Origin: Schmidtea polychroa
Taxonomy: Eukaryota
Direction of reading: 5' to 3'
Length of the DNA stretch: 64,000 nt
Assembly (NCBI GenBank): GCA_044892525.1
Contig: CM097885.1
Span: forward strand, 32,242,001-32,306,000
Shown here: positions 4,553 to 55,043 of the stretch, piece by piece
Numbering within the stretch: position 1 is the first letter of the stretch
Layout: every line of letters begins with the position of its first letter
Notes under the pieces: model-generated
Databases searched by the model: none
Seen by the model: only the letters and a program-made list of their open reading frames with translations
Told to the model about the DNA's origin: nothing
Translations under genes and position numbers: made by a program

Positions 4553-4600
4553 GGATTTTTACTATAAGGATTTTTACTATATGAATTTACTACTAAAGAA

Positions 4601-5365: not shown

Positions 5366-5389
5366 AGATTCATTTTAAATTATTAATAA

Positions 5390-6400: not shown

Positions 6401-6408
6401 TTATTAAA

Positions 6409-7020: not shown

Positions 7021-7098
7021 AATGGGTGTATTTTTAAAAAAGTAGATCAGGTTGCTATAGTTGCTTAAATTAATTGTCGACATTTTATTATTAAAAAA

Positions 7099-7653
7099 TT
7101 AAATATCGTTGAAAGCCAACCTATGAATCATTAATTTATGATCTTTAAATTCTTTATCACTTAGACCTTTTATATATTCAGGATCAGTATTAAAATATTT
7201 AAGTTCTAAACATATAGGATTAAAAACTTGAGAATATAAAGGTTTCTCGATTTCTCTCTCGGGATAAATAATTTCAACATTATAAATATCAAGATCAGTA
7301 ATCTTTGTATCATATAACTTATTCAACTTTTCTAGATTTTTTATTATAGGGATTAAATTATTTCCAATAGGTAGAGTTGTCTTTAAATCACTTAGTATGA
7401 ATCTCTTATCATCATAATTTGATAATGATACTTTTTGAGATTCTATCAAGTGAATATCATGGTTTTCACTTTTAAGTTGATGTATTTCATCAATTTTATC
7501 TTTATGATTTGGGTTTAATGTATCTATATAATCTTGATGAGAAAGATTCTTTGCAACCACTCTCTGTATTCCTTTACATCTGTTATCCTTTAAATTAGTA
7601 ATATTTTTTATAATTTCAAAAATGTTATTTTCTTGATTTTTAGTTTCCATCAT
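7099..7653 (-). CDS. Stand-alone copy of the pPolB C-terminal domain
   Basis: KGI...LSNYDDKR motifs; nearly identical to the last ~160 aa of the element C polymerase. Confidence 0.75.
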   Translation of the reverse strand: MMETKNQENNIFEIIKNITNLKDNRCKGIQRVVAKNLSHQDYIDTLNPNHKDKIDEIHQLKSENHDIHLIESQKVSLSNYDDKRFILSDLKTTLPIGNNLIPIIKNLEKLNKLYDTKITDLDIYNVEIIYPEREIEKPLYSQVFNPICLELKYFNTDPEYIKGLSDKEFKDHKLMIHRLAFNDI

Positions 7654-7677
7654 TTTATAGTGTTAAAATTCTAATTC

Positions 7678-10600
7678 TTAGACCAGTCGTAATTGATTTA
7701 TAATTATTTCTGCAGTAATGCTTTTTAACATTAATTTATGTGATTTAAAGTCTTCTGGTGTTAGTCCTTGGATATATTCAGGATCAGTATTAAAATATTT
7801 AAGTTCTATAGGTTTTATATTTTGAACTTGATTATATAAAGGTTTAGGAATTAATATTTCAGGATATTGGATTTCTACTTTAGCAAGTTGAAGGTCTGTA
7901 ATCTCTAGGATATAAATTTCATTTATTTTATCAAGATTTTTTATTATAGGGATTAAATCATTTCCAATAGGTAATGTTGTCTTCAAGTCAGAAAGTATAA
8001 ATCTTTTATCATCATAATTTGTTATAGCAATCTTGTTACACTCTTCAAGATATATATTATGTTTCTCTGATTTAAGATGATGGGTTTTAGCAATTTTATT
8101 TTTATAATTTATATTTAATGAATCTTTATACTCTTGATGTGTGAAGGTTTTTGACACTGATTTTTGAATTCCTTTACTTTTATTTTCTTTATAGCTTTTC
8201 GGGTTTTCAGGGAATGAAGGATATTCAAATGTTCGATCTACTTCAACAGATCCTTCTATTATAAATTTTATTGTATGCTCTTTCATAATTGGTTTGTCTT
8301 TCATTTCAAGAGAATATTGTTTAGGTCTAATAAACACTCCTCCAGTTATTGGAGTATTTGGTTTTTCATCTTTAAAAGTAAACAACTCTCCAGAATTGTT
8401 TATTAATTTATTTAAGGTTGGATCTTCACGTATTTCTTTTTTTAAATCTTTGCTATATCCTTTTAAAAACATACTATCAGTGTCCATTGCATGCATGGAT
8501 ATTCGATCTTCAAAATGTGGTACTAGAACATCATAGTAGGCTTCATACATTTGAAGCTTTGAAAGTTCTAAAATTGAAAACCCTATAAAGATTGGTTTAT
8601 TATAAGTTTTTACAGAGTTTTTAATCTCTATGGCTATAAGGTTACTAGAGAATATCTCGGCATTTTTAAATGTGGGCTTTCCAATTATCCGGTTGTACCT
8701 ATTAAGGTCTTTGGATGTATTGGTCAAAAGCTCTACACGTGTGTACTTGTCTATATTCTCCATGGTCTTTCCAAAGACCGCATTGTTCAGGAGTTTGTAA
8801 ATCATATCAAGAAATGCATTTCCAGCTCTCTTTGCTGCATTTCTTTTCAAAATATTTCCCTCTATGAATTTTTTCATAAAAGGGGCTTGTCGAAATTTAA
8901 TAATGGAATGTACTTTTTTTAAAACCATTCCATGGGAGAGATAAAACTGAAGGAGTCTATAATGACAAAGGTAATCAGTTTTATCGGTCTGATCGCATAA
9001 AAGTTTTATACAGGGCGATCTATCCTGAGCCATCTGCCAGTCTGAAAGTTCTTCAGTCGAGATCTTTCTTCTTACTGGAGCAAATGGAAAGAATCTTGTC
9101 CTGGATTTTATTTCATTGGGATATTCAAGATCGCATTCTATGACATATCCATATTGTGAATTCTTTGGTGTTTTTAGAATTTCTTGTATTAATTCCTCAG
9201 TGGGCTCTTCCCAGGTGAACTTGCCAATTGGAAGGTATTGAGTCATTACTCCTGCATATAAAGCTGTTGCATCTATATACATTATTTCAGAAGGATTAGA
9301 AAGACCTTCCAGTATTTCCTCACGATCTTCTGGGTTTGTTATTTCTACATATAGAGCATCAGTATCTTTGAAAAATTTAGGATAAAGAGTTGTAAAATTA
9401 TTAGCATTTATTTCTCTATTCCCTTGTACTGAAGAAATACCTCCTCTAATATTATGTTTATATACATTAAACATATCAAGCTCAACTAATAATTCAATGG
9501 TTTTATTTCTTTCTGCTATGTCTTCATCGGTCCATATGCTATATAATAATATATCCCAAGCTAGAGAGGGAGCGGTTATATAATTATAAGGTTTTAATTC
9601 AAAAGCTTTTGAAAATGTCTCGAAGCAATCAGCTAAGATATAAACATCTAAGGAAAGATACATGTCAGTATATTCTCCAAGGTTTCTACAGTTGAAAAGA
9701 TTCCACATTTTAAGTGCACGGGAATATTCCTGATCAGAAATCCCTGATTGTGTTAAAACAGAAAAGAAATCTTCTTGAGCTGGGAGTAATTCATTATATT
9801 TTTCAAAGGAGTCTATATAATCATATGGATAGATTCCTTTTGCTAGACAGGTATTATATTCCTCTAATGGAATATTGTTTTTTAATAACACATGTTCTTT
9901 TGTATATTTAAAATCCTCAGGGTTCATAGTTTTTGCAATGCCATTCAAAGACATCCCTAAGAAATTTAAGGAGTCCAAAAACTTAAAGCATCCATATTGA
10001 ATGCTTTTATATTTTTCTTTTGTAAGTCCAATAACCTTGAAAGAGTTTTTAGCATTTGCAGCTAGATGTTTAATGAACAGGTGAATATCATATCCAAAAA
10101 GATTGTGAAATATAAATGGTATGTGTGTTGGTTTTTTACAATTGAGATTACAATTTTTATGGGCCGCTCCTCTGTAATTATTTTCTATTTTAAAATGATC
10201 ATGGTCAGGAACCTTTAGTTCACTAGTTGACTCCTCATCCTCAAACTCTTGTTTGCACATCCAGCAGTGTGTTGCATTTTTATATTCTTCCTCTTGTTCT
10301 TCTGAAAAATTCATAGGAAAGTTGGATTTTAATATTATATATAATTCATGTTCTAGATTATTTAAAGTTTCAACAAAATGGTCTAGAGTCTCTTTGTCAG
10401 AAGTTCCCCTAAATGAATATTCTCTAGATTCTACAAGTTCTGGATAATTACTTTTGAAAAACATTTTATAAGCAGAGGGTAATTGTTTTGTTAGTTTTAC
10501 AGTATTAGTTTTTGTTCGTCTTAGTTTTACATTTATAGCTTCAAAATCACAATAAACCACTCCCAATGCTTCTAATAGATTGGAATAGTTTTTAAACCTC

Positions 10601-12063
10601 ATATTAGCATTTTTCTTGTGTGGCATTTTTATTAAAGCAGGTTGATTCTTACAACAGAGTCTCTCATGTTTAATAGCAGCAAGTTTTGAAGTTGAATGAT
10701 ATAAACATCTTTTACAACATATGCCTCCACGAATGAGTGTGTTTCCTTTCATAAAACTTTGAAAATTCTTTATTAAGATATAATGAAGTTTTTTATCTAA
10801 CATAGTGCCTCCGGACGCAGTGCTTTCTGCTTCTGGTTCTAATGAAATGCCTTCTTCTGCTTCCATAACCTTCGGGTGAATACTTTGAACCTCTTCACCA
10901 TATTCTTCTCCATCAAACTCTTCGTCTGCTTTACCTTCTTCTAATATTAAAAGATCTACTTCTCTCTTTTCATCTGAGATTTCCATATTAGAAATGTAAA
11001 TAGGAATAATTTGTTTATAATTTTTATTTTTTCTAGTTTTTGTAATTTTGGTTGGAATGAATTGATAAATATTAATTTTAAGATTATTTAATTTTTCAAA
11101 TGCTGGAACATCTTCAATTTTCATTGGGTGGGAAAAATCTTTTGGATATATTAATTCAGATTCATATTCTTCATATTTTTGAACTCTCTGTGGGTTAGTT
11201 GCTTGAGGATGTAAGTGTGCAAGTATTGACCATTGAAAACATTTATTATCTTTATTCTGTACATTTATAACATGGTTGGAGGTGAATGGTGTATGAATAA
11301 AAGATTTAGGATTTGGTGGTGCACCTCTCCAGTATTCAATCTCTATGTTTTGAAAAGAGTGGAATCTTAAATTAGATTCTCCTAGTTCTTGTTCCACCTG
11401 TTCTTGTTTTTCTTCCAATTCTTTAGCTATATCATTAACAAGTTTATTTCCTGCTTTTGTAGAAAATAAATATTTATATGAGGTTTCAATTTTTACATCT
11501 AGAGGCATTGCGATCGAATCATCTCCTCTCCAGTATTTTGCATTTCCTGTAAATTTAACTTTTATAACATTAAATCTTGATCTACCAAATTTTTTTATAG
11601 CATCATCCATTGATGATATTATTTTTTTTTTATTTTCTCTTATATATTGCATGATTGATCTGGGTCCTCGTTTTACTTCTGCAATTACATCGGTGTGATT
11701 GAAGTCATCCCAATTAAACTCTAGTTTTTCAGCTTTTTCAGTCATTGAGTTTGAATCAGAATCTTTTGCTTCAAGACCACAATCTTCTATGTGTCTTAAG
11801 TAAAAAGATTTTATCCTCATCTTTTTTCCACATGCTGAACATTCGAATATTTCTCTGTTTTTAGGAACTCCAATACAATTTTTAAAATGTTTCTTATAAC
11901 CTGAAAATAAATATCTATCCTTACATTTAGTACAGATTTTGGAATTAGTGTCATCTAGTGTGTTAGCTTTTATTAAATGGTCTTTTGATTTTTTATGAGA
12001 TGTTAAAGCAGTTTTATTTTTAAAATATTTTTCACAAATTTCACAATTGAAAATAGCTTCCAT
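7678..12063 (-). CDS. Intact protein-primed family B DNA polymerase (1461 aa)
   Basis: N-terminal Zn fingers, DFE exonuclease I, CWMC..DHDH..YRGAAH..CN insertion, HNLFGYD, KGIYPY, KLLNNAVFGK, DTDS, KGI and DDKR. Confidence 0.97.
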   Translation of the reverse strand: MEAIFNCEICEKYFKNKTALTSHKKSKDHLIKANTLDDTNSKICTKCKDRYLFSGYKKHFKNCIGVPKNREIFECSACGKKMRIKSFYLRHIEDCGLEAKDSDSNSMTEKAEKLEFNWDDFNHTDVIAEVKRGPRSIMQYIRENKKKIISSMDDAIKKFGRSRFNVIKVKFTGNAKYWRGDDSIAMPLDVKIETSYKYLFSTKAGNKLVNDIAKELEEKQEQVEQELGESNLRFHSFQNIEIEYWRGAPPNPKSFIHTPFTSNHVINVQNKDNKCFQWSILAHLHPQATNPQRVQKYEEYESELIYPKDFSHPMKIEDVPAFEKLNNLKINIYQFIPTKITKTRKNKNYKQIIPIYISNMEISDEKREVDLLILEEGKADEEFDGEEYGEEVQSIHPKVMEAEEGISLEPEAESTASGGTMLDKKLHYILIKNFQSFMKGNTLIRGGICCKRCLYHSTSKLAAIKHERLCCKNQPALIKMPHKKNANMRFKNYSNLLEALGVVYCDFEAINVKLRRTKTNTVKLTKQLPSAYKMFFKSNYPELVESREYSFRGTSDKETLDHFVETLNNLEHELYIILKSNFPMNFSEEQEEEYKNATHCWMCKQEFEDEESTSELKVPDHDHFKIENNYRGAAHKNCNLNCKKPTHIPFIFHNLFGYDIHLFIKHLAANAKNSFKVIGLTKEKYKSIQYGCFKFLDSLNFLGMSLNGIAKTMNPEDFKYTKEHVLLKNNIPLEEYNTCLAKGIYPYDYIDSFEKYNELLPAQEDFFSVLTQSGISDQEYSRALKMWNLFNCRNLGEYTDMYLSLDVYILADCFETFSKAFELKPYNYITAPSLAWDILLYSIWTDEDIAERNKTIELLVELDMFNVYKHNIRGGISSVQGNREINANNFTTLYPKFFKDTDALYVEITNPEDREEILEGLSNPSEIMYIDATALYAGVMTQYLPIGKFTWEEPTEELIQEILKTPKNSQYGYVIECDLEYPNEIKSRTRFFPFAPVRRKISTEELSDWQMAQDRSPCIKLLCDQTDKTDYLCHYRLLQFYLSHGMVLKKVHSIIKFRQAPFMKKFIEGNILKRNAAKRAGNAFLDMIYKLLNNAVFGKTMENIDKYTRVELLTNTSKDLNRYNRIIGKPTFKNAEIFSSNLIAIEIKNSVKTYNKPIFIGFSILELSKLQMYEAYYDVLVPHFEDRISMHAMDTDSMFLKGYSKDLKKEIREDPTLNKLINNSGELFTFKDEKPNTPITGGVFIRPKQYSLEMKDKPIMKEHTIKFIIEGSVEVDRTFEYPSFPENPKSYKENKSKGIQKSVSKTFTHQEYKDSLNINYKNKIAKTHHLKSEKHNIYLEECNKIAITNYDDKRFILSDLKTTLPIGNDLIPIIKNLDKINEIYILEITDLQLAKVEIQYPEILIPKPLYNQVQNIKPIELKYFNTDPEYIQGLTPEDFKSHKLMLKSITAEIIINQLRLV

Positions 12064-12183
12064 TTTTAAAAGAATTTTTTGGTTGGATACGATGTTTTGG
12101 TTTTGATATTAATTTTTATTAATTTTTAAATCCTTATAACGTTAAATCCTTAAATCCTTTAAATCCTTAAATCCTTAAGACCA

Positions 12184-12429
12184 AGTAGTGAGGAATCTAT
12201 GCACCCCGTTACCTTTTCTCGGAATTACTAATCTATAAATACATCTATTCCGAACTTTTTTACTTTTAAGGGAAGAAATTAAGGGTTAATGGCAATAGGG
12301 GACAAAGTTTAAAAGTTAAAAAAAGTGAAGAATATGGGGTAAAAAAGCATATAAATGTGGAAAATATGGGTCAATAGCGCTGTTATTTTTGAGGGTGGGG
12401 GTGCTGGGGTGCATAGATTCCTCACTACT
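12184..12429. repeat. 246-bp terminal cassette of A2 with perfect 24-bp inverted ends
   Basis: AGTAGTGAGGAATCTATGCACCCC ... GGGGTGCATAGATTCCTCACTACT. Confidence 0.9.
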
Positions 12430-38621: not shown

Positions 38622-39551
38622 AATAGTGTGTATATATACCCAACCCAAACAACCCTCCCAACAAAAACATACCTCCATTACGCTTAAACCATTAGAAAAA
38701 CAACATAAAACCTATGTTTTTATAGTATTTTAACCCCATATTTTTGAAAACAACCACCCTTAATCTTTAAAGCCTCAAACTCAAAAGCTTCAAACTAAAA
38801 AGAGAATAGAAAAGAAAATGGCATTATGAAAAAGTTAGAGGGCTATTTGGGATAGGGCTATATACACACTACTTTTGATCGCAATCAAACTCCGGAGTTG
38901 ATCTTTATCAGATTATTGATTTTAAATTATATAAATTAAAAAATAAATGAAAAATAGTAAAACTGCTCTGAGGGGACAGTGGTATTTTTTTTTTCACTGT
39001 CCCCTCAACAGTTTTTTTGATCCGGATCATTTCAACCTCTTTCGTTTATCAAATCTCTTCTAATATACAAGCTGGCCAGACTCATACATCAGAATCAATC
39101 CGATAATAGCAGCACACCTTATTATTCGCTTCTCGCTCGAATACGATTTCATCGGCGTTTTAAGCGTGCTGCTCGAAAGTACAAATGAATTCGAAAGTGA
39201 ATTCGAAAGAGGTCCGAAAACAACTGAGAAATAAATGTGCACATTAAAGAATCGATCCGGGGGTGTTCGAAAGACAGGTGGCGATAATTACCGGTTCGCC
39301 ACCATCACCCGTTTCAATAATTTTTTTTTCATATTTATGTTTAAAAATAAAATAATTAATAAAATAAATAAAATAAATAAAATAAAATAAAATAAAATAA
39401 AATAAAAATAAATAAAATAAAATATAAATCTAAGATACCCACACTATTATTTTAAAATTTTTAAAAAAAAATAAACTAACCACAGTTAGGATTTGAACCG
39501 CTATCCATTTGAACCACTGTGCCAGTCTAGCCCACTGCGCTATCTAGGTTT
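38622..39551 (+). repeat. Left TIR of element C
   Basis: Inverted copy of 50677-51617. Confidence 0.93.
39475..39549 (-). ncRNA. tRNA-like Pol III unit (left TIR copy)
   Basis: On the minus strand: A-box TAGCGCAGTGG, B-box GGTTCAAATCC, then a T-run. Confidence 0.55.
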
Positions 39552-39650
39552 CAGATTTTTATTTATTTTTTATACTGTCACATTATGAAAATAAATATAA
39601 AAACATAAAAAATCAAAACAGGGTATCCAATAAAAAATTTTTTTCTAAAA

Positions 39651-42600
39651 ATGAATTGTAATATTTGTAATAAAGTTTTTAAAAATAAAACTGGATTAAT
39701 TTCTCACTTAAAATCGAAAGCTCATTTATTAAAAGAAAACAATCTTAATGATACAAATTCAAAAGTTTGTCCTAAATGTAAAGGAAGATTTCTACATTCT
39801 GGATATAATAAACATTTTGAAAATTGTATCGGGAAAAATAGAGAAATATTTACATGTCCTCATTGTAACTTTTCAACAAAACTAAATTTCTATTATTTAG
39901 AACATATAAAAGAATGTAAAAATAAAAAACAAAATTCTGACGATGAGGAATGTCATTCAGAAGGAGAACCTGATCATGTTGAAAGAGAAAAATATAACTG
40001 GGATAATTTTAATCATATAGATGAATTTCAATTAAAAATTAATGGACCTGCAACTCCTGGAGAATATATAAATAAAAATAAAAAAAATATTAAAAATTCT
40101 TTCACTGAAGCTTTAAAAAATTATAAACTGACAAGGTATAATGTTATAAAATATAAAATTATAATCAAAGCAAAATACTGGCGAGGAGCAGAAGAAAAGA
40201 CAACACCTTTAGATGTTGAAATTGGAATACCCTTTAAATATTTATTTTCAACTAAAGGATTTGATAAAACCATCAAAGAAATAATTCAAGCAGTAGAAGC
40301 AAAACAAGAAGAGGTTGAAAATGAATTAGGAGATTCAAACTTAGTATTCAACTCTTTCCAAACTTTAGTGATTGATTATTGGAGAGGATTACCACCCAAT
40401 CCTAAATCTTATATTCCTACACCCTTTAAATCTAAAAATGTTATAAATGTACAGAATAATGATAACAAATGTTTCATCTGGTCAATACTTGCACATTTAC
40501 ACCCTCAAGAATCAAACCCTCAAAGAGTTTCAAAATACAAACAATATGAAAATGAATTAATATTTCCCAAAGGATTCAAACATCCAATGAAACTAGAAGA
40601 CATTCCAAAATTTGAAAGTTTAAATAATCTTAAAATTAATATTTATGAACGTGTTAAAGGGAAACATGTTAATAGCAGAGAAATTATTCCAATTTATATT
40701 TCAGATTATGAAGTTAGAGATAATGAACCCCAGGATAACACTAGGGAGATATATCTTTTTATCTTGGAACAACAAAATAATCAACATTATGTTTTAATAA
40801 AAAACTTTCAAGCTTTTACATCACCAGAGAATCCAACTAGTGGAGGAGAAACATGTAAAAGATGTCTTCATTATTCAACAACTAAAAACTCTATGATTAA
40901 ACATACAAGATTTTGTGAAAAAGATGATCCAGCTTTAATTAAAATGCCTAATAATCCCAAGATGTATTTTAAAAACTTTTCAAATTTACTACAAACAGTA
41001 GGAGTGCTTTATGGGGACTTTGAATCTATAAATCGTAAACAAGATTTGGTTAACCAATATTTAAAAATAATAGAAAAAAATAAACTCATGGATTCCTGGA
41101 ACTCCTCAGGAGAGAAGATGAAACCAGAGAGGATGAAAGCCTTTCTAAGAAAAAGGAATAAACCTAATAGTGTTAAAAAAACTAAACAATTACCATCTGC
41201 TTATAAATTATTATTTAAAAGTAATTATCCTGAACTCATAGAATCTAGAGAATATACATAAATGATCTAGAACATGAAATATTTAAAGTATTAAAAACAA
41301 ACTATCCTCAAAATATTTCTAATCAACAACAACAAGAATATGAAAACACTTCCAACTGTTGGATGTGTAAACAACCATTTGAAGAGTCTCCGAATATAAA
41401 AGTCCTCGATCATGATCATTTAAAAAAGGAAAATAATTATCGAGGAGCAGCTCATAAAAATTTTAATCTTAATTGTCATACTCCTAAATTTGTACCTGTT
41501 ATATTTCATAATCTTTTTGGTTATGACATACATCTATTTATTAAACATTTAGCAGCAAATGCTAAAAACTCTTTCAAAGTTATAGGACTTACAAAGGAAA
41601 AATATAAATCAGTTGAATATGGAAAATTAAAATTTATAGACTCGTTAAACTTTCTTCAAATGTCTCTAGATGGAATAGCTAAAACAATGAAACCAGAAAA
41701 TTTTAAAATCACTCGAGAATTCTTGGAAAAAAATAATATTCCTCTAGAAGAATATCCTACATGTTTAGCAAAAGGAATATATCCTTATGACTATGTTGAC
41801 TCGTTTGAAAGATATAATGAAACAAGTCTTCCTAGCCAAGAAGATTTCTATTCACAACTTCAAAAAAATCATATTACAAATCAAGAATATTCTCGAGCAA
41901 ATAAAATGTGGGAATTATTCAAGTGTAAAACTTTAGGAGAATATACAAGTATGTATTTATCCTTGGATGTTTATATTCTAGCAGATTGCTTTGAAGAATT
42001 TACAAAATCTTTTGTTCTTAAACCTTATAATTATATAACAGCACCCTCTTTAGCTTGGGATACTTTATTATATACCATTTGGACTTCAAATATAGAAGAA
42101 GCTGATAAAATTATAGATCTTTTAACTAACCTCGATATGTTTAATCTAATTAAAACAAACATTAGAGGAGGAGTCTCTTCAGTAATGTGGAATAGAGAAA
42201 TAAAAGCTAGAAATGCAATAACTACTAGCAGAATGCTTTCAAAGACCTCTGATCCATATATAAAAATTAACAATGAGGAATTAAAAGAAATATTAGAAAC
42301 AATGAAAAATCCTATATTTATACTTTATATAGATGCAACAGCTTTATATTCAGGAATTATGACTCAATATTTACCAATGGGTGATTTCATTGAAATAGAA
42401 TCATCAAAAGAACTTATAAAAGAAATACTTTCAACACCTAAAGATTCTCCAATAGGTTACTTTGTAGAATGTGACTTATTATATCCAGATGATATAAAAT
42501 CAGGAACAAGATATTTCCCATTAGCTCCTGTAAGAAGAAAGATTGATATCAACGAACTTTCTGAATGGCAAATCTCACAAGATAAACCCCCAACAATGAA

Positions 42601-43918
42601 ACTTCTTTGTGATCAAACAGATCGAAGGTTTTATCTTTGTCACTATAGACTTCTCCAATTTTATCTTTCACGAGGTATGATATTAAAAAAAGTTCATAGT
42701 GTCATAAGATTTAAACAGAGGCCATTCATGAAAGCTTTTATCGAGGAGAACATTAGATGTCGAAACATTGCAAAAAGAGAAGGTAACCTTTTTAAAGATA
42801 ATAATTATAAACTTTTAAACAATTCAGTCTTTGGGAAGACAATGGAGAATGTTGATAAATATACTCATATTGAACTCCTAACTAATACTGCCAAAGATAT
42901 TAAGCGTTATAATCGTATGCTAGGAAAGCCTACATTTAAAAACGCACAAGTATTTTCTGAAAGTCTTACTGCAATAGAACTAAAGAGTTTTGAGAAAACA
43001 TACAACAAACCAATATTTATAGGGTTTTCAATTTTAGAACTTTCAAAATTACAAATGTATGAAACATATTATAACATCTTACAACCTATATATGGTTCTA
43101 ATATATCAATGCATGCAATGGATACAGATTCAATGTTTTTAACAATAAGAACTCATGATTTACAAAGAGATATAGCTGAAAATCCTATACTTTCAAATTT
43201 AATAAATTCAACTGGAGAATTATTTTCATTTAAAGATGAAAAACCTTTTACTCCTATAGAAAATGGAATATTTATTCGTGCTAAACAATATTCATACGAA
43301 ACATTTAAAAACCCTGAATTTATAACCCGAGAAATTATATTTAAAACCCCAGAAAAAGAGGAAATTATTTCATTTAAATATCCTATATTCCCTAAAGGAC
43401 CAGAGGGACAAGAAGAAAAACCTGTAAAGGATAACAGATGTAAAGGAATACAGAAATCCGTTGCAAAGAATCTTTCTCATCAATATTATATAGATACATT
43501 GAATCCAAATCATAAAGATAAAATTGATGAAGTGCATCAGATTAAAAGCGAAAACCATGATATTCACTTGATAGAATCTCAAAAAGTATCATTATCAAAT
43601 TATGATGATAAGAGATTCATCCTAAGTGATTTAAAGACAACTCTTCCTATAGGAAATAATTTAATCCCCATAATAAAAAATCTAGAAAAGTTGAATAAGT
43701 TATATGATACAAAGATTACTGATCTTGATATTTATAATGTTGAAATCATTTATCCCGAGAGAGAAATCGAGAAGCCTTTATATTCTCAAGTTTTTAATCC
43801 TATATGTTTAGAACTTAAATATTTTAATACTGATTCTGAATATATAAAAGGTCTAAGTGATAAAGAATTTAAAGATCATAAATTAATGATTCAAAGGTTG
43901 GCTTTCAACGATATTTAA
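39651..43918 (+). pseudogene. pPolB of element C, frameshifted by a short deletion near 41258
   Basis: Two ORFs (536 and 851 aa) colinear with the A polymerase; the segment SFRG...FVETL is missing at the break. Confidence 0.93.
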
Positions 43919-43996
43919 TTTTTTAATAATAAAATGTCGACAATTAATTTAAGCAACTATAGCAACCTGATCTACTTTTTTAAAAATACACCCATT

Positions 43997-44596
43997 TTAT
44001 AAATAAGAATTCTTTAACCATTTCTCCCGTTTAATTTTTTTAGAATATTCATTAGTTATAACATTAGCACTTTTCAATCTATTAATATTATTTTTAATAT
44101 CTTGTATTATTTGATTTGATTTCATTATTTCATCATCAGTTAAGATTCCATCTTCCAAAGCTTTTAATTGAAATAAAAATAATTTAGAGATTCCTAATTC
44201 TATTGACAAACAAACTTCACGATATAAACTTTTCTTTTTTGAAGTATAAGATAATGAAACTATTTCAGTTAAGAAACCATCAGCTACAGAAATACTTCCA
44301 AGTATTACTGGCGCAAGTGTTAAAACTGGTAAAGTTATAGGTAAAATAACTGTTAATATTGCAGATGCAAATCCTAAAGAATAACCTATAAATTTTAAAA
44401 CTGTATTCCCTTTATTCCATCTACTTTTAATTTTTTTATAATGTTTTAATAAATCTTGTAAATGTAATGTTTCTGATTTAAATTCTTTTACTCTCATAAT
44501 TTCAAGTTCTGTGGGAGCTGAAGGTCCCGAAGGTTTGGGGGAATAATATCCTGATGACAATTTTGGGTAAACTTTTTCTTCTCTTACTTCTTCCAT
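43997..44596 (-). CDS. Two-TM protein with YPKL and PSAP motifs
   Basis: Homologue of 6409-7020. Confidence 0.7.
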   Translation of the reverse strand: MEEVREEKVYPKLSSGYYSPKPSGPSAPTELEIMRVKEFKSETLHLQDLLKHYKKIKSRWNKGNTVLKFIGYSLGFASAILTVILPITLPVLTLAPVILGSISVADGFLTEIVSLSYTSKKKSLYREVCLSIELGISKLFLFQLKALEDGILTDDEIMKSNQIIQDIKNNINRLKSANVITNEYSKKIKREKWLKNSYL

Positions 44597-44604
44597 TTTA
44601 ATAA

Positions 44605-45582
44605 TTAAAAAAATAAGATTTTATTATCTGGTACCAATACTCGGATATCATAAGAGACTCTTGTTGAGAGAATGTCTTTATACAATTCCATCAATGCTTT
44701 ACGAACTTCATCAACATCAACCTTTTTTTCATAAAATATTAAATCTATATAATCCACAAGTGTGCTTTTAAAAATAATATTCTTACTTTTAACTTTATGT
44801 AGTCCATGTGAATGAGTATTAACATACCAATATCCATGTGTTAAATCATAACCACTTATTATAACATCACCCTTTTCAAACTTACTATTATAATCACATT
44901 TCACAAACCATTTCATTCTTTCATTATCATCATCAAATAAAAAGAAATAAGGATCAATAATCTTTACAACCATAAAAACACTCCATTCTTTACTATTTGT
45001 TGTTATTAAAGTTGGTTCTATAAAATGTTTATATGTATGGGGTAATAATGTTTTATTCTGTTCTAATTCAGCAGCTCTTTTTCTAATACTATGTGTGGTA
45101 TTAATGTGTGTTGTATGAGACTCTAAATTTGAAAGTCTTTTATTAAATGATGTAATCATCTCATTTATTATATTATATATTGTATTAAATTTAGTATTCA
45201 TAATTTGTTTATCTTTAGAGTTTAATATACTAGTATTTAACTTTACAACTTGTTCAGTTAACAGACTTTGTAACTTGTCAAATTTATCATTAAATCGTTG
45301 TTCGATATTATTAAGCTTTGATTCCATTGAATCAATTTTTGTTGTTAATGAACTTTCAATTCTTCTTGTTGTTAAATCAGTATAATTTTTATTAGCAGCA
45401 TCACCTTCATCAATTGGTAAAGATAAATCTTTTATCTTGTGTCCATTTAAATTTAAATCTCCTTTCATTGAATCACCTCTTTCATTAATATATTTATTTT
45501 CTGTTAAAGTTAATATTTCTTCTGTATTAAACCCTGTTTTTATTGTTCCACCACCTCTATTACAAGGAATATAAGAACTCAT
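44605..45582 (-). CDS. Putative fibre-like virion protein
   Basis: Close homologue of 5390-6400. Confidence 0.55.
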   Translation of the reverse strand: MSSYIPCNRGGGTIKTGFNTEEILTLTENKYINERGDSMKGDLNLNGHKIKDLSLPIDEGDAANKNYTDLTTRRIESSLTTKIDSMESKLNNIEQRFNDKFDKLQSLLTEQVVKLNTSILNSKDKQIMNTKFNTIYNIINEMITSFNKRLSNLESHTTHINTTHSIRKRAAELEQNKTLLPHTYKHFIEPTLITTNSKEWSVFMVVKIIDPYFFLFDDDNERMKWFVKCDYNSKFEKGDVIISGYDLTHGYWYVNTHSHGLHKVKSKNIIFKSTLVDYIDLIFYEKKVDVDEVRKALMELYKDILSTRVSYDIRVLVPDNKILFF

Positions 45583-45606
45583 TTATTAATAATTTAAAAT
45601 GAATCT

Positions 45607-46377
45607 TCAAACCTGTTTCAAATGTAAATACATTGAAATCTCTTCTCCATTAAAATCAATCAATTCTCCTTCTTGATTAAGAATTTTAAAATTAATATCC
45701 ATTATATATTTTCTACATAAAGGCAAATAATTTGGAGGATTCATTCTTTCAACTATTTTATATCCCATAGGAACTGTGTTTGATGGAAAGGAATGTAAAA
45801 CATTTGTTTGTTTACCATTATTATAAGAACCTGTTATACAATCACAATGAATATTTATTGTGTTTGTATTTATTATTTTTATAATATTTTCTGATGTTAT
45901 ATTCTCAACTATAGGTGTGATATAATGGTTTCGTGTAAATCCTAAAATTGTTCTAAAGAAACTATTATTTTGAAAATGAATTCCTATATTCTCTAAAGTC
46001 ATTATACATTTTGAAGTTGGTAAATCCATTTTAATTTTAATGGCTCCATTTGTTTTTTTAGAAAGTATATTATTTAAATCTTTTATCTCATAAGCTCCAG
46101 GTTCGATTGTTATTATAATCTTATCTGTAGATTTTGGGCTTATATAATAAAATATGTTATTATCTTTAGTTATATTAAAAATAGTATTATAAGCACAAAA
46201 CCATAATAGACCTAATTCATAATTTAAATCTTGATCTAATTTTATTGAATCTTGAAAGTTTATAGTAAAGTCTGATTCTTTTGAATTTATAGATAAAGTT
46301 CTTGAATATTTATCTGACATTATGTTTACCATTTTTTTTAAATTATCTTCCAGAAGGTTGCGAAGCTCCATTTTCAT
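45607..46377 (-). CDS. Minor capsid protein (penton)
   Basis: Close homologue of 4601-5365. Confidence 0.85.
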   Translation of the reverse strand: MKMELRNLLEDNLKKMVNIMSDKYSRTLSINSKESDFTINFQDSIKLDQDLNYELGLLWFCAYNTIFNITKDNNIFYYISPKSTDKIIITIEPGAYEIKDLNNILSKKTNGAIKIKMDLPTSKCIMTLENIGIHFQNNSFFRTILGFTRNHYITPIVENITSENIIKIINTNTINIHCDCITGSYNNGKQTNVLHSFPSNTVPMGYKIVERMNPPNYLPLCRKYIMDINFKILNQEGELIDFNGEEISMYLHLKQV

Positions 46378-46505
46378 AATAGAGATTTTAAATCATTATA
46401 AATTTCTTGGATTAAGGAAGTGAAACCTTCTCCTTTGGATTTATTCAATCTATACAAAACATATAAACTTATAATACCACATATTTTAGTATTATTAGGT
46501 TGAAC
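46374..46505 (-). pseudogene. 3' remnant of the protease gene
   Basis: Reads VQPNNTKICGIISLYVLYRLNK...IQEIYNDLKSLL*, matching the end of 4088-4552. Confidence 0.85.
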
Positions 46506-47281
46506 CAATTTTAAATAGACATAAGAGTAAATTTAATAATAAAGTATTTCCTGATAATTTTAGATTATTAATTGTTGGATCTTCTGGATGTGGAAAGAAT
46601 GTACTTGTTTTGAAAATGTTACTTGAAGATGGTTTTTTAGATTATAATAATTTAATCTTTTATTCTACAACCATAAACCAACCAGAATTACAACTTTTGA
46701 AATGTGGATTTGAAAATAAATTAACTAAAAAAGCAATAATTGATATTTTTAAAAATCAACATAGGTGTCCTGAAGAAGTTTTTCATCCTTGTGATATGGT
46801 TGATTGGTATAAGGAAAAGATTTTAGAATCAGATATTAATAATAAAAATGATTATATTTGTGAAGAAGGGCAGGAGGCAATTCAAGTTTTATTCTCTAAT
46901 AAACCTGAAGATGTTTTACATTGTGATTTACTTCCTAAAGATAAAAAGAATCTAGTTATATTTGATGATGTTGTCAACATGAAAAATCAAGAGATTCAAA
47001 AGAGTTACTTTACACGAGGTCGACATAATAATTGTAATGTTATTTATATATCTCAAACTTATTATTCTTTAGATAAAAACTCTATAAGAAATAATTCTAA
47101 TTGTTTTATATTTTTTAAATTAGATCGCCGTGATAAGAATATGATTTATAATGATTTATTTTCAAATGTTGAACCTGATAAGAATATGTTTGATATGTTT
47201 GTTGATAATCATTGGAGAGAAAAATATAATTATATTTATTTGGATAGAGAAGAAGCTGAAATATGGAAAAGTTTGTTTTAG
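46505..47281 (+). pseudogene. Packaging ATPase, 5' end lost at a deletion junction
   Basis: In-frame upstream LLIVGSSGCGKN (Walker A), VIFDD, TRGRHNN, ISQTY and IRNN. Confidence 0.9.
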
Positions 47282-47292
47282 GGCTTGTCGAC

Positions 47293-48621
47293 TTAAAAAT
47301 CTGTTTTCTGTAACTCATTATTATAAAATCTACCTAATATTTTTTCATTATTTAAATCAATGATGCTATATGTTATTGGAGTTGTATAATTTATTTTATT
47401 TATAATAAAAATTTCATTTGTCCATTTTGCTGTGAATCCTTTTTCAAATTTATTTTTATATTTAAATATTCTTACTCGGTCACCAATTTTAAACTTTGGT
47501 TTTTCAATAACATCATTTTCAACAGGATTTATGAGTTCCAAAGGATTGTTCCATTTTTGTTTTCCAATAGCAGTAAAATATTTCCACATTTTATTTTTTA
47601 ATGTTCTATTTAATCTTTCAACTACGACTGCTTTTCCTTCGTTTTCTGTTGAATATAATTTAATATCATTTTCATTTAAAAACTTTGTAAAAACTTTGTT
47701 ATAAAATTCTGTTCCTTTATCACACCATAAATATTTTGGAATTCTTTGATGTTCTTCAAATATATTTTCAAATGCTTCTGTAATGGAATATCCTGTTTTA
47801 TTTTCTAAACACCTTGCAAAAGCAAATCTTGTATATAAATCTATTACAGTTAAAATTATTTTATATTTTTCAGGGTCTGATGATTTGGTTGGCATAAAGA
47901 CTAAATCTGCAGACCATGTTTGATCTTTTTCATGTACTTGAACTTTTAAATATTTTTTATTTTTTCTAAATTCATGGTGTAATTCGTTGGCATATTTTAT
48001 TTGTGATTCTGTTGGGGTTAATAAACTAGTCTTGGATATATTCTCGAGGGATCTTTCAGCATCTGCTTGTTCAATAATCTTTTTATTAGCAACATCTTTT
48101 GCCATCCTTGGTAAACTAGCACCTATGAAAATCTTACCTTTCATTGCTAATTTAACTAGAGCTCTTTGAATCTTTTCTTGGGTTGATAGATTTTGTATAT
48201 TATTTAAATCATGTATTAAATTCACATCTGCAACATGTCTATCTCTAAGATCTTCTGAATTGTAAGCAATATCATGTTTTAAAGCCGCTTGATCAATTCT
48301 ATTTATTGGTTCTTCTCCTTGTTTGGGATTATTATTTTCATCTAATCTAATATCTAATCTTGTTCCTGGTCCGGTATAGTTGTGTTTAAATAAATGTCTT
48401 TCACCTGGATATTTTTCTGTAGTAAAAGGTTTTAATATTGAAGATGTCACTTTTGAAGATTGTAGGTCGCCTCCGGCTCGTGGAATCATGTCGCCTCCTA
48501 TATGTTTTTTAGTTTTTAGATGACTTGCTTTATGATGTCTTGTAACTTGACAATTACAACTTTCACATCTCCAATAGAGAGACATTTTAAAAGTTAAAAT
48601 ATTAAGAATCTCCCCTAACAT
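47293..48621 (-). CDS. Zn finger + parvovirus-type PLA2 + retroviral-like integrase fusion
   Basis: NYTGPG...IDQAALKHDIAY; WSADL, CDKGTEF, VERLNRTLK and KFKIGDRVRI. No chromodomain; probable small deletion after KQKW. Confidence 0.88.
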   Translation of the reverse strand: MLGEILNILTFKMSLYWRCESCNCQVTRHHKASHLKTKKHIGGDMIPRAGGDLQSSKVTSSILKPFTTEKYPGERHLFKHNYTGPGTRLDIRLDENNNPKQGEEPINRIDQAALKHDIAYNSEDLRDRHVADVNLIHDLNNIQNLSTQEKIQRALVKLAMKGKIFIGASLPRMAKDVANKKIIEQADAERSLENISKTSLLTPTESQIKYANELHHEFRKNKKYLKVQVHEKDQTWSADLVFMPTKSSDPEKYKIILTVIDLYTRFAFARCLENKTGYSITEAFENIFEEHQRIPKYLWCDKGTEFYNKVFTKFLNENDIKLYSTENEGKAVVVERLNRTLKNKMWKYFTAIGKQKWNNPLELINPVENDVIEKPKFKIGDRVRIFKYKNKFEKGFTAKWTNEIFIINKINYTTPITYSIIDLNNEKILGRFYNNELQKTDF

Positions 48622-49895
48622 TTTCGATTATTGAAATCTTTCTCACCATATAATTTCATTTCTATTTTCTTTTCTTCTAATATTAATGTATATACTTTAG
48701 CTTTAAAATTAGAATCCTTTGTTATATGAAGTGTCACATCAACATTATTTATGGCTAGGCGATCATCTTGGTCTGAAACATTTATACAAAATATAGAATA
48801 TAAATTTTTGAAATCTTCTAAACTTAATTGCGGTTCAACTTTGAAATCATAACATGTTTCAATATAATTTAGATATGGGAATATGTTTTCATTATTTTCA
48901 ATATTAAATTCCATTCTATTTATTGGATAATAAGAACTATTTAATTGAATTTGGATTGTTTTTAAATTATCAACTCCAATCTTTTGAATAAACAAGATGT
49001 TATTTTTTTGGAAAGATGAATCTACTTCTTTGAATCCAATCAAGATATATCTTGGTCGGTATGCTAAATTTGCTACCTTTATAGAATATGTTGAACCCTC
49101 TGTCATACTAAATTCACTACAGATTCTATTTAAATAATTTACATTTATAGACTTGTTGGAATTTAATCTTTCAAGGAGTTTGATTTCAGAATGTGGATTT
49201 AATGTCCATTCAGGTATATGCAATTCAAGTGTTGATAATTTTAATTTAGCTTTTGTATCTGCAGCTCCATAGAACAATCTTTTATCACCTTCTAGTCTAT
49301 TACAGATGAATTCTATAAAAACATTATGAAGTACACGGTTATAATTTTGAAGGAATCCAAACAAGTGTTTTAATTCAAAATAACCTTCAAATTTTTTAGA
49401 TTTATAAAGTTCAGCTCTTTTATAATAACCATAATTTATATCTAAACCATCTTTATCTAAATCTCCTTTATTAACATCAGGAATCCAACCTGTTAATTCA
49501 CCATATTCGTTTTTATAATCACAACCTGTCAAAATAAAATTTAACATTGTAGAATATACTCCTGGATGTAAAACAGTTTCAATTTCTGATGATCCTAGTT
49601 TTAATCTCATGTTGGAGAATAAATTTGGAAAGAAATTATTTTCTAGGGTTATATCTTTGTTTGCTTCAATTTCTAATTCAATTTTATAATATAATTTAGC
49701 ATTACAAATATCTATTGGGTTTGATGTTTGAAGAGATTGAAAAACTATATCACCCCTACGATTTAAGTTTGCAATCGATCCTGACGTAGGGGATATTTTA
49801 AGTACATCATTTTTCTTGATTTCATGAGTAAATTCTTTATTATAATCAAGATTTAATTTATTTTTTTCTTGAATTTTAAGATTTATATTATTCAT
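48615..49895 (-). CDS. Major capsid protein (double jelly roll) of element C
   Basis: 426 aa; NNFFPNLFS...L...EIE, PRYILIGF, LNSSYYP and YSIFCINVS motifs; position within the element. Confidence 0.8.
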   Translation of the reverse strand: MNNINLKIQEKNKLNLDYNKEFTHEIKKNDVLKISPTSGSIANLNRRGDIVFQSLQTSNPIDICNAKLYYKIELEIEANKDITLENNFFPNLFSNMRLKLGSSEIETVLHPGVYSTMLNFILTGCDYKNEYGELTGWIPDVNKGDLDKDGLDINYGYYKRAELYKSKKFEGYFELKHLFGFLQNYNRVLHNVFIEFICNRLEGDKRLFYGAADTKAKLKLSTLELHIPEWTLNPHSEIKLLERLNSNKSINVNYLNRICSEFSMTEGSTYSIKVANLAYRPRYILIGFKEVDSSFQKNNILFIQKIGVDNLKTIQIQLNSSYYPINRMEFNIENNENIFPYLNYIETCYDFKVEPQLSLEDFKNLYSIFCINVSDQDDRLAINNVDVTLHITKDSNFKAKVYTLILEEKKIEMKLYGEKDFNNRKC

Positions 49896-49951
49896 TTTTA
49901 TATATTAAAATTTACACACACACAATAGGATTAATTATATATATTATGTAA

Positions 49952-50033
49952 CCCATTATAGCGGAGTGGGAATAGGCTTCAATTTTATCACCGGGAGTAC
50001 CGGGTTCAATTTTCGATTTTGGTCAATTTTTTT
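49952..50033 (+). ncRNA. tRNA-like Pol III unit 1
   Basis: A-box TAGCGGAGTGG at 49959, GGGTTCAATT B-box-like motif at tRNA spacing and a T7 terminator. Confidence 0.5.
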
Positions 50034-50194
50034 CGATATTTTTTTTCAACGGAATCTGATTCAGCGTACTGATTTTAGTATATATTTAAATTTTCAGATG
50101 GATCTGAGTGGTAGTTGTCGAGAAAATGAATAATTAATTATTAATTTCATCAATAAATAGTCACACATTAACAACTTATTTTATATTGAGTATA

Positions 50195-50275
50195 GCTCTA
50201 ATAGCTTAGTGGTAATAGCACTCGACTGCATTGCCAATACCAATGGGTTCAAATCCCATTTCGGTCATTTTTTTT
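50195..50275 (+). ncRNA. tRNA-like Pol III unit 2 (tRNA-Cys-like 5' half)
   Basis: TAGCTTAGTGGTAATAGCACTCGACTGCA, perfect T arm ATGGG-TTCAAAT-CCCAT and a T8 terminator; the anticodon stem does not pair. Confidence 0.65.
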
Positions 50276-50431
50276 CAAATTTTTTTTTAACGAAATATTG
50301 ATCAGCATACTTGATTTAGTACTTATACAAATTTTTAAGGAGATTGGTCAACGGCAACTCTTGGAAATTTAAGATCAAAAACGTTTTAACTACCAAAAAT
50401 TAATATATCCAATAAAAAAATATTTATAAAA

Positions 50432-50701
50432 ATGGATGAGTTAAAAGAAAGAATGAGAAATGAATTGAATGAAGTTAAACATAAGAGAATGAAAAGAAGA
50501 GAAGAAGAACCATTAGAATACATCAAAGAGTTGATGGTAGATAATGAAAAGTATCGACATTTTTATATGAAGGCTGTAGATGTTGCTGATATAAGATTGA
50601 AGAAAATGAAACAATTACAGGAAAGAGTTAAAGAACTTGAATCGATTATTTATAGTCTAAAAAATGAGAAAAATCCAAACCTAGATAGCGCAGTGGGCTA
50701 G
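50432..50701 (+). CDS. Small basic coiled-coil protein
   Basis: AAAAATG start context like the other genes of the element; KHKRMKRR and a heptad LQERVKELESIIYSL. Confidence 0.55.
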   Translation: MDELKERMRNELNEVKHKRMKRREEEPLEYIKELMVDNEKYRHFYMKAVDVADIRLKKMKQLQERVKELESIIYSLKNEKNPNLDSAVG

Positions 50702-51617
50702 ACTGGCACCGTGGTTCAAATGGATAACGGTTCAAATCCTAACTGTGGTTAGTTTTTTTTCAACTTAAAATAATATTAAAAATTTGAAAATAATATTGAA
50801 AATGGTGTGGGTATCTTAGATTTATATTTTATTTTATTTATTTTTATTTTATTTTATTTTATTTATTTTATTTATTTTATTAATTATTTTATTTTTAAAC
50901 ATAAATATGAAAAAAAAATTATTGAAACGGGTGATGGTGGCGAACCGGTAATTATCGCCACCTGTCTTTCGAACACCCCCGGATCGATTCTTTAATGTGC
51001 ACATTTATTTCTCAGTTGTTTTCGGACCTCTTTCGAATTCACTTTCGAATTCATTTGTACTTTCGAGCAGCACGCTTAAAACGCCGATGAAATCGTATTC
51101 GAGCGAGAAGCGAATAATAAGGTGTGCTGCTATTATCGGATTGATTCTGATGTATGAGTCTGGCCAGCTTGTATATTAGAAGAGATTTGATAAACGAAAG
51201 AGGTTGAAATGATCCGGATCAAAAAAACTGTTGAGGGGACAGTGAAAAAAAAAATACCACTGTCCCCTCAGAGCAGTTTTACTATTTTTCATTTATTTTT
51301 TAATTTATATAATTTAAAATCAATAATCTGATAAAGATCAACTCCGGAGTTTGATTGCGATCAAAAGTAGTGTGTATATAGCCCTATCCCAAATAGCCCT
51401 CTAACTTTTTCATAATGCCATTTTCTTTTCTATTCTCTTTTTAGTTTGAAGCTTTTGAGTTTGAGGCTTTAAAGATTAAGGGTGGTTGTTTTCAAAAATA
51501 TAGGGTTAAAATACTATAAAAGTATAAGTTTTAGGTTGTTTTTCTAATGGTTTAAGCGTAATGGAGGTATGTTTTTGTTGGGAGGGTTGTTTGGGTTGGG
51601 TATATATACACACTACT
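50677..51617 (-). repeat. Right TIR of element C
   Basis: Reverse complement of 38622-39551. Confidence 0.93.
50679..50760 (+). ncRNA. tRNA-like Pol III unit 3 (right TIR copy)
   Basis: A-box at 50686-50696, GGTTCAAAT at 50713 and 50729, T8 at 50753. Confidence 0.55.
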
Positions 51618-53696: not shown

Positions 53697-55043
53697 TTAT
53701 TTTCTCGTATTTTCGTAGTCACCTGAAAAATAATTTGACAAAATTATTGTAATTGGAGCATAAATTCCAATTAAGCTCCCGAAAATAACACAAGTAATCT
53801 TGAATCCGAAAAAGTGCGATAGTAACCCACCAAGAAGAGCTCCAAATAAATTACCAATTGAATGCGAAGTAGTAAGCATTGTGGCAGCCATGCTGTTGGA
53901 TTTTCTATTAATTATTAATTCGCAAATTGTAGACACGAGTGGGAATAAAAAATAATCTACGAATCCAATTCCAAAAAATACTATTGCAATATTTAAACAA
54001 AGAAATATAATCCTAAAATGAAAAGTAATAGTAAAAAGCCCAACACTGATCAAACTTATTCCAACCAATGGACAGATATGTGACACGTTATTCCAGTATT
54101 TTTCTATTAAAGCAGAAAATAATTCTGAAATCCCATAAATAAGTCCTCCAAAAATCCAGAACATTCCTTGATTCTCTGTTGTTGAGTAAAAATAAGTTCC
54201 CATCCATTGGGGTAAAACCGCCAAAAAAAAAGAAATTGAACCCGTAGAAATAGCAACTCCAATACATATTATGATAATGTAAGGGTTGAAAAATACCATA
54301 TAGATTTCAGAGAAGTTCCTTTCTTTCATTGCATGCCTTCCAATAAATGGAATATTATTAAGAATACGGAAATTTTCTATCTCTTTCTTCCAACAAATAA
54401 AACTAAGCAAACTCAGTCCACAAAGAAACAAATGAAATGAAATCAACACAAGATATGTTGAATTGTGTCCATAAAAAGAATAAAAGCTGCCCCCTAACAT
54501 GGAACCAAAGGAAATTCCAATGTAGTAAAAGAAATTCGCAACAGCTATTGCGTATGACTTATTGGTCTTTCTTGTGAATATTGAAGTGAGAAATGAGTAT
54601 GCAGAAGTAACTGTAAGACTCTCTGATATACCTTCCGCCATTCGTGATATTAAAATGCTAACACAATTATTAGAAAACACATACAAAACCAAAGAAGCTC
54701 CATAAATCATCAATCCAAACATTATGATAAATTCTGATCCTAATTTACTTACAAAGTACCCCGCCAGAATATTTCCAGGTAATCTTATTAGAATTTGACT
54801 TCCCACAAGGTAGGATGTTTCAATGAAAAATATATAACTTTCTACTTCTTTAGATTCCGAAATATTTCGAAAAATAGGATGGTAATAAAAGCATTTTTTG
54901 GCTGCCAGAATCGAAGGAACTATCATTAGGACAAATGAATCTAGACATCCGCTGAAATATAAGACTAAAGAAGCAAATACTAGATATAATATCCGACACT
55001 TTGACTTGTTGAAATCTATATCCATATCAAAGGATCCCTGCAT
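53697..55043 (-). CDS. Host MFS transporter, SLC18 (vesicular amine transporter)-like, single exon
   Basis: About 12 hydrophobic segments; NPYIIIICIG...LPQWM and GFVD...P resemble VMAT DPYILIAAG...LPIWM and GMVD...P. Confidence 0.75.
   Translation of the reverse strand: MQGSFDMDIDFNKSKCRILYLVFASLVLYFSGCLDSFVLMIVPSILAAKKCFYYHPIFRNISESKEVESYIFFIETSYLVGSQILIRLPGNILAGYFVSKLGSEFIIMFGLMIYGASLVLYVFSNNCVSILISRMAEGISESLTVTSAYSFLTSIFTRKTNKSYAIAVANFFYYIGISFGSMLGGSFYSFYGHNSTYLVLISFHLFLCGLSLLSFICWKKEIENFRILNNIPFIGRHAMKERNFSEIYMVFFNPYIIIICIGVAISTGSISFFLAVLPQWMGTYFYSTTENQGMFWIFGGLIYGISELFSALIEKYWNNVSHICPLVGISLISVGLFTITFHFRIIFLCLNIAIVFFGIGFVDYFLFPLVSTICELIINRKSNSMAATMLTTSHSIGNLFGALLGGLLSHFFGFKITCVIFGSLIGIYAPITIILSNYFSGDYENTRK

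Follow-up and report, generated by a model that had tools for sequence, protein, structure and literature searches.

Animal Polintons are relatives of adenoviruses, and one of them, lying in the 64,000-nucleotide stretch of the Schmidtea polychroa genome analysed here (hereafter the window, whose numbering is used throughout), carries a row of short tRNA-like units beside its capsid gene. What are these units for? A preliminary description had counted three of them, each with an A box, a B box and an oligo-T terminator, and had proposed that they encode small RNA polymerase III (Pol III) RNAs comparable to the VA RNAs of adenoviruses, or else that they are TFIIIC-bound insulators. Our analysis separates the row into parts of different history, and the VA-like idea fits only a neighbouring fourth unit, not the three units for which it was put forward.

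The carrier element

The following features of the element are used below.

38622..51617, no strand: Polinton/Maverick element with ~950-bp terminal inverted repeats (TIRs) and a 6-bp target-site duplication
38949..39308, minus strand: left-TIR copy of the U4 cassette; the TIR arms are 99% complementary
39651..43918, plus strand: pPolB, split in this copy into two ORFs (39651-41261 and 41363-43918)
47293..48621, minus strand: ORF with PLA2-like and rve integrase domains (domain search)
48615..49895, minus strand: major capsid protein (PF21738)
50432..50701, plus strand: 89-aa ORF, optional among copies, whose last codons overlap the U3 A box
51366..51617, no strand: self-inverted terminal module, one of several exchangeable types

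The carrier had been identified as a Polinton, and this identification stands: the ~13-kb element combines pPolB, an rve integrase, a double-jelly-roll capsid protein, TIRs and a 6-bp target duplication, the features of a Polinton/Maverick of the adintovirus type. Its family comprises thousands of copies in the 781-Mb genome. At first look 3211 capsid candidates were found genome-wide, and exact patterns for U2, U3 and the U4 hairpin matched 1315, 2197 and 2557 times, respectively. The ORFs between 45607 and 47281 gave zero Pfam matches; from their position and motifs we take them to be candidates for the packaging ATPase, the protease and the penton. The 89-aa ORF had no Pfam match either.

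Several other features of this region were observed. The PLA2-like domain and the integrase are fused within a single ORF. The Polinton termini in the window (3040-3285, 12185-12429 and 51366-51617) are ~250-bp modules, each itself an inverted repeat, and at least 10 sequence types of such modules are swapped among elements with 85-98% identical capsid genes. A second Polinton type occupies positions 1-12429, with a pPolB ~70% identical and a minor-capsid region 89% identical; it contains a partial head-to-tail duplication at ~9.15 kb and no A/B units. Just beyond the element, at 53697-55043, lies an intronless ORF of 448 aa for an MFS transporter.

Anatomy of the A/B-box units

39463..39549, minus strand: U3′ in the left TIR, head-to-head with pPolB and ~100 bp from it
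49952..50033, plus strand: U1, degenerate tRNA-like unit (A box 49959-69, B box from 50003, T7)
50195..50275, plus strand: U2, degenerate tRNA-like unit (A box from 50202, B box from 50246, T8)
50679..50760, plus strand: U3, A/B-box unit (A box 50686, B box 50729, T8 to 50760)
50931..51022, plus strand: U4 head (A-box-like 50938-48, B-box-like 50981-90, T4 at 51019-22)

A pattern consisting of an A box, 20-60 nt, a B box and a T-run matched four times in the 64-kb window and not once in 300 local dinucleotide shuffles, showing that the three units described earlier are real and non-random. All three had been placed correctly, but the count missed a fourth unit at 50931 together with the folded stretch behind it. 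The A and B boxes of U1, U2, U3 and U3′ are separated by 32-33 nt. U1 and the capsid gene are arranged head-to-head, with 57 bp between the unit and the capsid ATG. U3 sits at the inner edge of the long Polinton end and is often tandemly duplicated in other copies. The reported duplication of U3 in the TIR is also present, as U3′ running on the minus strand from 39549 to 39463.

ARAGORN called zero tRNAs in the window, and among the units the Rfam tRNA model accepted only U2 (32.4 bits; cut-off 29); besides this, no RNA family scored above the Rfam cut-off in the units or the U4 stretch. In no unit are the acceptor, anticodon and T stems of a functional tRNA all intact. In the Rfam tRNA alignment U2 keeps its T-stem and has lost three of the five anticodon-stem pairs; the earlier reading had the T arm retained and no anticodon stem. 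Its likeness to tRNA-Cys holds for the 5′ half, where 25 of 29 columns match the host tRNA-Cys, but not for the whole length, over which identity to tRNA-Cys (46/73) is no better than to tRNA-Lys (47) or tRNA-Arg (44), the only three host tRNAs compared. Furthermore, in 39 of 116 copies of U2 the 5′ acceptor strand is missing and the A box is kept. U1 and U3 fold no better than shuffles (z −0.04, −0.38 and −0.06), and U1-U3 are 75-82 nt long, half the length of a VA RNA. The host's own tRNA genes form long tandem arrays with a 278-424-bp period (L241, L091 and L114; G000:C1, C4 and C140), and the tRNA-Cys pattern has 994 genome copies.

U1 and U2 match the host rDNA spacer

49907..50391, plus strand: optional module with U1 and U2, a likely capture of host rDNA intergenic spacer, seen at 34 of 89 sister ends

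The module carrying U1 and U2 is 94-97% identical to the intergenic spacer in five of the six rDNA units examined, where the match lies antisense to the rRNA, ~2.6-3 kb beyond the 28S end; in the sixth, a deletion runs into U0, a further tRNA-like unit that lies upstream. The spacer order is U0-U1-U2 at ~240-bp spacing with one to four copies of U2, and U1 and U2 are thus members of a tandem subrepeat between 28S and 18S. This array of three unit kinds was seen, for example, at L263:7870-8550 (G000:C97) and in other rDNA units. That U1 and U2 are diverged tandem paralogues, as had been proposed, is borne out by the alignment of their modules over ~243 bp. The U0 pattern has 687 genome copies, and among the first 30 of them 23 are followed by U1 and none by U3/U4. 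The rDNA spacer also has 75- and 104-bp subrepeats, and the 28S gene of one rDNA unit is interrupted by a ~3.2-kb insertion (L260:612-3796), possibly an R-type element.

Polinton variants contain differing extents of the spacer at two different sites. In addition, 99% identical spacer pieces of 695 bp (L366:102-796) and 1759 bp (L367:8112-9870) interrupt the pPolB of two other Polintons; these insertions were found via the U0 pattern, and hence contain boxes by design. Because spacer pieces also break into pPolB in this way, we strongly infer that the transfer ran from rDNA to Polinton, and the U1/U2 module itself is likely to have been captured from the host spacer. Since U1 and U2 are host rDNA-spacer DNA, the conservation of their boxes arose in the host, and inside Polintons neither shows a contrast between boxes and body (113 and 116 distinct places). 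The proposal that these two units evolved in the virus therefore fails, and spacer capture accounts for two of the three units with no need to assume a role for them in the virus. As to whether the units occur only in Polintons, U3 was seen nowhere else among the matches and rDNA stretches examined, but U1 and U2 are also in the rDNA spacer.

A satellite holds a ~82-85% paralogue that reaches past the Polinton module; its A box and T-run are retained, as is the greater part of its B box. An 82% U2 paralogue with its boxes and T-run preserved is carried by a ~1.25-kb macrosatellite (L247-L248, G000:C1:145800-160000, and L267), and near one rDNA unit a Polinton end lies beside ~1.25-kb macrosatellite repeats.

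U3 keeps its boxes while its body varies

We compared 107 copies of U3 fetched via the capsid gene and regarded a column as polymorphic at a frequency of at least 5%. In the body 21 of 53 columns are polymorphic, in the boxes only one of 21 (Fisher p = 0.004), and the sole variable box column carries a purine allowed by the consensus. The described combination of conserved boxes and diverging bodies is therefore seen in U3, but not in U1 or U2. In the flanks 18 of 39 upstream and 4 of 40 downstream columns vary, the downstream flank being nearly as invariant as the boxes. Coding constraint does not explain the U3 pattern, since many copies lack the 89-aa ORF. Many copies also have U3 in tandem duplication with a period of ~235 bp.

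U3 is weakly homologous to the U2 spacer unit (score 64 against a shuffle maximum of 55), and its homology to U0 and U1 is not significant; on this weak homology, U3 may be an older capture from the spacer-unit family. It was found only in Polintons among the first 30 of its 2197 matches and in 13 rDNA stretches. A conserved terminal stem or hairpin that seemed visible by eye in U3 variants was not supported by folding. U3 likely serves as a bare TFIIIC/Pol III site.

A fourth unit followed by a predicted structured RNA

51023..51203, plus strand: predicted multi-branch RNA core behind U4 (from folding; covered by contigs of sequencing run X1)
51133..51193, plus strand: G·U-rich long hairpin with 25 predicted pairs, 9 of them G·U in the commonest form, and a 2×2 GA/GA loop
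51223..51289, plus strand: 3′ hairpin whose loop is oligo-A and in which one pair is doubly compensated; the T4/T5 runs behind it are the predicted terminator

The fourth unit, U4, lies ~170 bp outward of U3; its start at 50931 is inferred from tRNA numbering, its A-B spacer is 32 nt and its A box departs from the consensus once. The U4 head forms no cloverleaf (zero ARAGORN calls; below the Rfam tRNA cut-off). Folding of the 360 nt that begin at 50931 gives −128.7 kcal/mol (z −8.8), a value that none of 100 shuffles equalled, with a predicted layout of head hairpin, branched core, 3′ hairpin and then T-runs. The minus strand of the stretch also folds (z −4.9). The long hairpin has −22.8 kcal on the plus strand against −2.1 on the minus strand, while the whole cassette shows no significant strand asymmetry in energy (21 of 150 controls from the window).

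All 13 common variants in the helices of the centroid structure keep the pairing (154 distinct places; 0.57 expected per random transition, p = 6e-4), and transversions make up none of the 13 paired variants against 8 of the 19 unpaired ones (p = 0.01), p-values that are optimistic because the copies are recent, mosaic and non-independent and the structure was taken from one copy. The pairing-keeping variants are mostly exchanges between Watson-Crick and G·U pairs. In 30 aligned copies double compensation is seen at only one of the 103 predicted pairs, and the frequency of polymorphism is not significantly lower in paired than in unpaired columns (p = 0.27).

The 345 nt of the U4 stretch contain a single T4 run, at 51019-22, and this run is invariant. 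It could terminate U4 early, at ~92 nt; T4 is also the only kind of run that follows host tRNA-Cys genes. The long hairpin has no Rfam miRNA match at the gathering score. The U4 motif was absent from the viral contigs searched, in which two scans found no capsid relative either. Likeness to hammerhead or 7SK/7SL motifs was also considered and rejected, as it had no Rfam support.

Distribution among sister elements

How widely the units occur was examined in the DNA upstream of the capsid gene at 90 of 126 loci ranked by a PF21738 search, a ranking that is not a random sample and includes loci that are duplicates of one another; one locus with a withheld stretch was set aside, leaving 89. U3 together with the core of U4 is carried by 62 of the 89, of which 32 also have U1/U2, and a further 4 carry part of the cassette. 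Fifteen have no unit, the capsid gene being directly followed by a ~250-bp self-inverted terminal module, and units are missing from 8 others as well. Since 15 of 89 sisters end in this manner, nothing in the unit region is essential. The preliminary description had named absence from sister Polintons as evidence against its idea, and such absence is found in part: 23 of 89 ends have no unit at all and 55 lack U1/U2. U3 and the U4 core occur together on several terminal-module types, and there are module types with and without the cassette.

Dispersal as a host SINE, which had been named as another possible objection, is not what we saw. The first 30 matches each of U2, U3 and U4 are all in a Polinton context (30/30 in each case), these being the matches with the lowest positions, all from the start of contig C1. 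Likewise, no host locus for U3/U4 was found in the 13 rDNA stretches, save one inserted Polinton, nor in 30+30 position-ordered matches or in 52 copies of one haplotype. In a 52-copy subfamily (L371-L422) the U3-U4 cassette is almost only at the capsid end (51/52), and the cassette therefore need not occupy both TIRs. Among 37 capsid-related loci from metagenomes (92 kb), few of which include element ends, there was no tRNA and no credible A/B unit.

Possible transcript evidence

Contigs from 4 of 12 sequencing runs, none of the 12 being recorded as RNA, were compared with the stretch, and one of these runs, X1, is guessed to be RNA. X1 contigs cover 50923-51225 and the capsid gene. Over the long hairpin they carry minority-type alleles that are rare in run X3 (2% at 51152). 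All 52 genomic copies of this haplotype adjoin Polinton genes; 51 are next to the capsid gene and none has U1/U2. An origin of the X1 cover from pre-rRNA was ruled out, as the 13 rDNA stretches contain no U3/U4 match save one inserted Polinton.

The summed depth of X1 is 3281-9518 over 50923-51225 against 220-1000 on the capsid gene, with X3 nearly flat, a contrast that is only a hint because contig depth cannot rank parts. Depth is thin at U1/U2 (6-21) and U3 (120-166), run X7 has no contig over the U4 core and run X10 has no contig at all; such libraries lose short RNAs. No X1 contig joins the U4 stretch to other parts. The X1 sample may come from another strain, and oligo-dT capture via the A-rich loop could bias which alleles appear in it. 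The contigs, which come from one study and lack strand, ends, level and polymerase, hint that the cassette is transcribed from Polinton copies.

Discussion

We consider it fairly probable that U1 and U2 are captured cargo, that U3 is a docking site for TFIIIC and Pol III, and that U4 drives a structured Pol III RNA of ~350 nt. By their type-2 anatomy the A and B boxes would be bound by TFIIIC, which would place TFIIIB and Pol III facing outward; the docking site at U3 would point away from the capsid or polymerase start. U1-U3 would yield at most unstructured RNAs of 75-82 nt, and may matter, if at all, as protein-bound DNA sites beside the capsid and polymerase starts. At U4, Pol III would read through the single T4 to the T-runs at 51277-89, and by analogy with VA, EBER and TMER RNAs the G·U-rich hairpin of the product might be bound or cut by dsRNA-recognising proteins (Dicer/RNAi, ADAR). 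A more far-reaching and tentative possibility, resting on the same analogy, is that the ~350-nt RNA is encoded by the Polinton as a VA-like decoy duplex against Dicer or dsRNA sensing, its cassette having swept across the end types of a family with thousands of copies, and that the element also recruits Pol III boxes from host rDNA time and again. If true, this would give Polintons a first noncoding gene for counter-defence and would show one way in which VA-type RNAs can arise. A structured Pol III RNA in most sampled copies would also be a candidate for how the elements live with host RNA silencing.

The form of this idea given in the preliminary description, that U1-U3 themselves are virus-evolved small decoy RNAs like VA RNA, is hardly credible. 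Their promoter and terminator anatomy is complete, but U1 and U2 are host spacer, neither U1 nor U3 has a long duplex or a significant fold, and the body of U3 varies freely. The freedom of the U3 body, which keeps its boxes and not its body or fold, is what would be expected if only the DNA mattered, with all four units bound by TFIIIC/TFIIIB and the divergent promoters of capsid and polymerase thereby protected from silencing, through a barrier or a zone free of nucleosomes, any RNA being a by-product. The positions agree with such a role: in most ends with the cassette a unit begins 40-60 bp away from the capsid ATG, and the distance to pPolB is ~100 bp. So do the tandem duplication of U3 at ~235 bp, the 39 of 116 U2 copies that lost the 5′ acceptor strand and retained the A box, and the A/B-box-only sites of Dictyostelium rDNA, which are proposed as Pol III assembly sites (PMC5391098). 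However, the RNA-type, G·U-tolerant constraint behind U4 would be left unexplained, and unit-free sisters retain open capsid frames, so that we regard a purely DNA-based role for the whole row as rather unlikely.

The units might instead be neutral cargo, host Pol III sequences (the spacer units and, as source of U3/U4, an unseen host RNA gene) that were captured and then multiplied through recombination and hitchhiking among very abundant elements. For U1 and U2 the origin is shown and no contrast of boxes and body exists inside Polintons; moreover, the units are dispensable, and spacer DNA enters Polintons even where genes get broken. As an account of the whole row it is nevertheless unlikely, given the lack of a host U3/U4 locus in the 13 rDNA stretches, the 30+30 matches and the 52 haplotype copies, the pairing-preserving variants that segregate among Polinton copies, and the presence of the cassette on several end types. 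Yet another reading takes the folded stretch as a TMER-like precursor, with the head removed and the hairpin diced to a microRNA, or as a segment of a Pol II or piRNA precursor. A tRNA-like head followed by a ~60-nt hairpin of pre-miRNA size is the TMER layout (passages of PMC8223928), and Polintons are piRNA targets in one planarian study (PMC8532177). We regard it as very unlikely: the U4 head has no cloverleaf, the hairpin lies inside a multibranch domain, Rfam gives no miRNA match at the gathering score, and the X1 contigs show no joint to other parts.

The favoured reading, with U4 driving a structured RNA, can be compared with known systems. Full-text literature searches (Repbase, subscription papers and supplements, which may mention such things, were outside their scope) turned up neither a Pol III RNA nor any structured or functional noncoding RNA described for animal Polintons, and no description of these spacer units. 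According to passages of PMC4378190, VA RNAs are Pol III transcripts of ~160 nt that act as inhibitors of PKR and serve Dicer as substrates, and the apical stem of VA-I has 22 bp with wobble pairs and a GGGU/ACCC tetrastem (excerpts of PMC6599070). U1-U4 share with VA RNAs, and with the EBERs of EBV, internal A/B boxes and an oligo-T end in a linear dsDNA virus-like genome, a likeness at the level of sequence only; by prediction the U4 product would also carry, as VA-I does, a wobble-rich stem of more than 20 bp in a branched fold. Unlike these RNAs, however, the U1-U4 stretch has no sequence match to VA or EBER; U1-U3 have 75-82 nt without long stems, and U4 would have ~92 or ~350 nt by T-run position. 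Nor is the long stem stacked on a GGGU/ACCC tetrastem: GGGU/ACCC-like 4-mers are paired by RNAalifold at the 5′ terminus, remote from that stem, and are left unpaired in the single-sequence centroid. To our knowledge PKR is restricted to vertebrates, and therefore any target of a U4 RNA is likely another protein.

TMERs of MHV68 have tRNA-like heads with miRNA hairpins, as set out in passages of PMC8223928. They resemble the units here in being clustered type-2 Pol III units at a genome end, and by prediction the U4 product would also have a tRNA-like head followed by hairpins, but the heads here have no cloverleaf, and U1-U3 stop at the T-run with no hairpin behind. At best the U4 product works like VA or TMER RNAs; it is a member of neither family. 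A structured Polinton RNA would nonetheless link tRNA-derived promoters to RNAs of the VA, EBER and TMER types.

Other mobile elements have also captured Pol III promoters, among them tRNA-derived SINEs and Cassandra TRIMs with their 5S-derived LTR promoters. The Polinton, too, is a mobile element with a captured Pol III promoter in its terminal repeat; in contrast to them, no independent dispersal was seen here and the carrier is a self-synthesising DNA element. In ETC-type TFIIIC sites, A/B boxes of the tRNA type stand outside any tRNA. Polinton-like viruses and MELD viruses are reported to have complete tRNAs (passages of PMC12220804 and PMC8502044), likewise tRNA-derived sequence in a Polinton-type genome, but in those accounts the tRNAs can be called by ARAGORN or Rfam and are proposed as a translation aid, whereas the units here are degenerate and two come from the rDNA spacer. 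The extrachromosomal rDNA of Dictyostelium is reported to have A/B-box-only Pol III sites (PMC5391098), and U0-U2 similarly are A/B boxes without tRNA context in rDNA; unlike those sites, U0-U2 form a ~240-bp spacer array with T-runs that has been carried off by a DNA transposon. The host rDNA spacer of this genome thus has an antisense array of tRNA-like A/B units that a DNA transposon has repeatedly captured.
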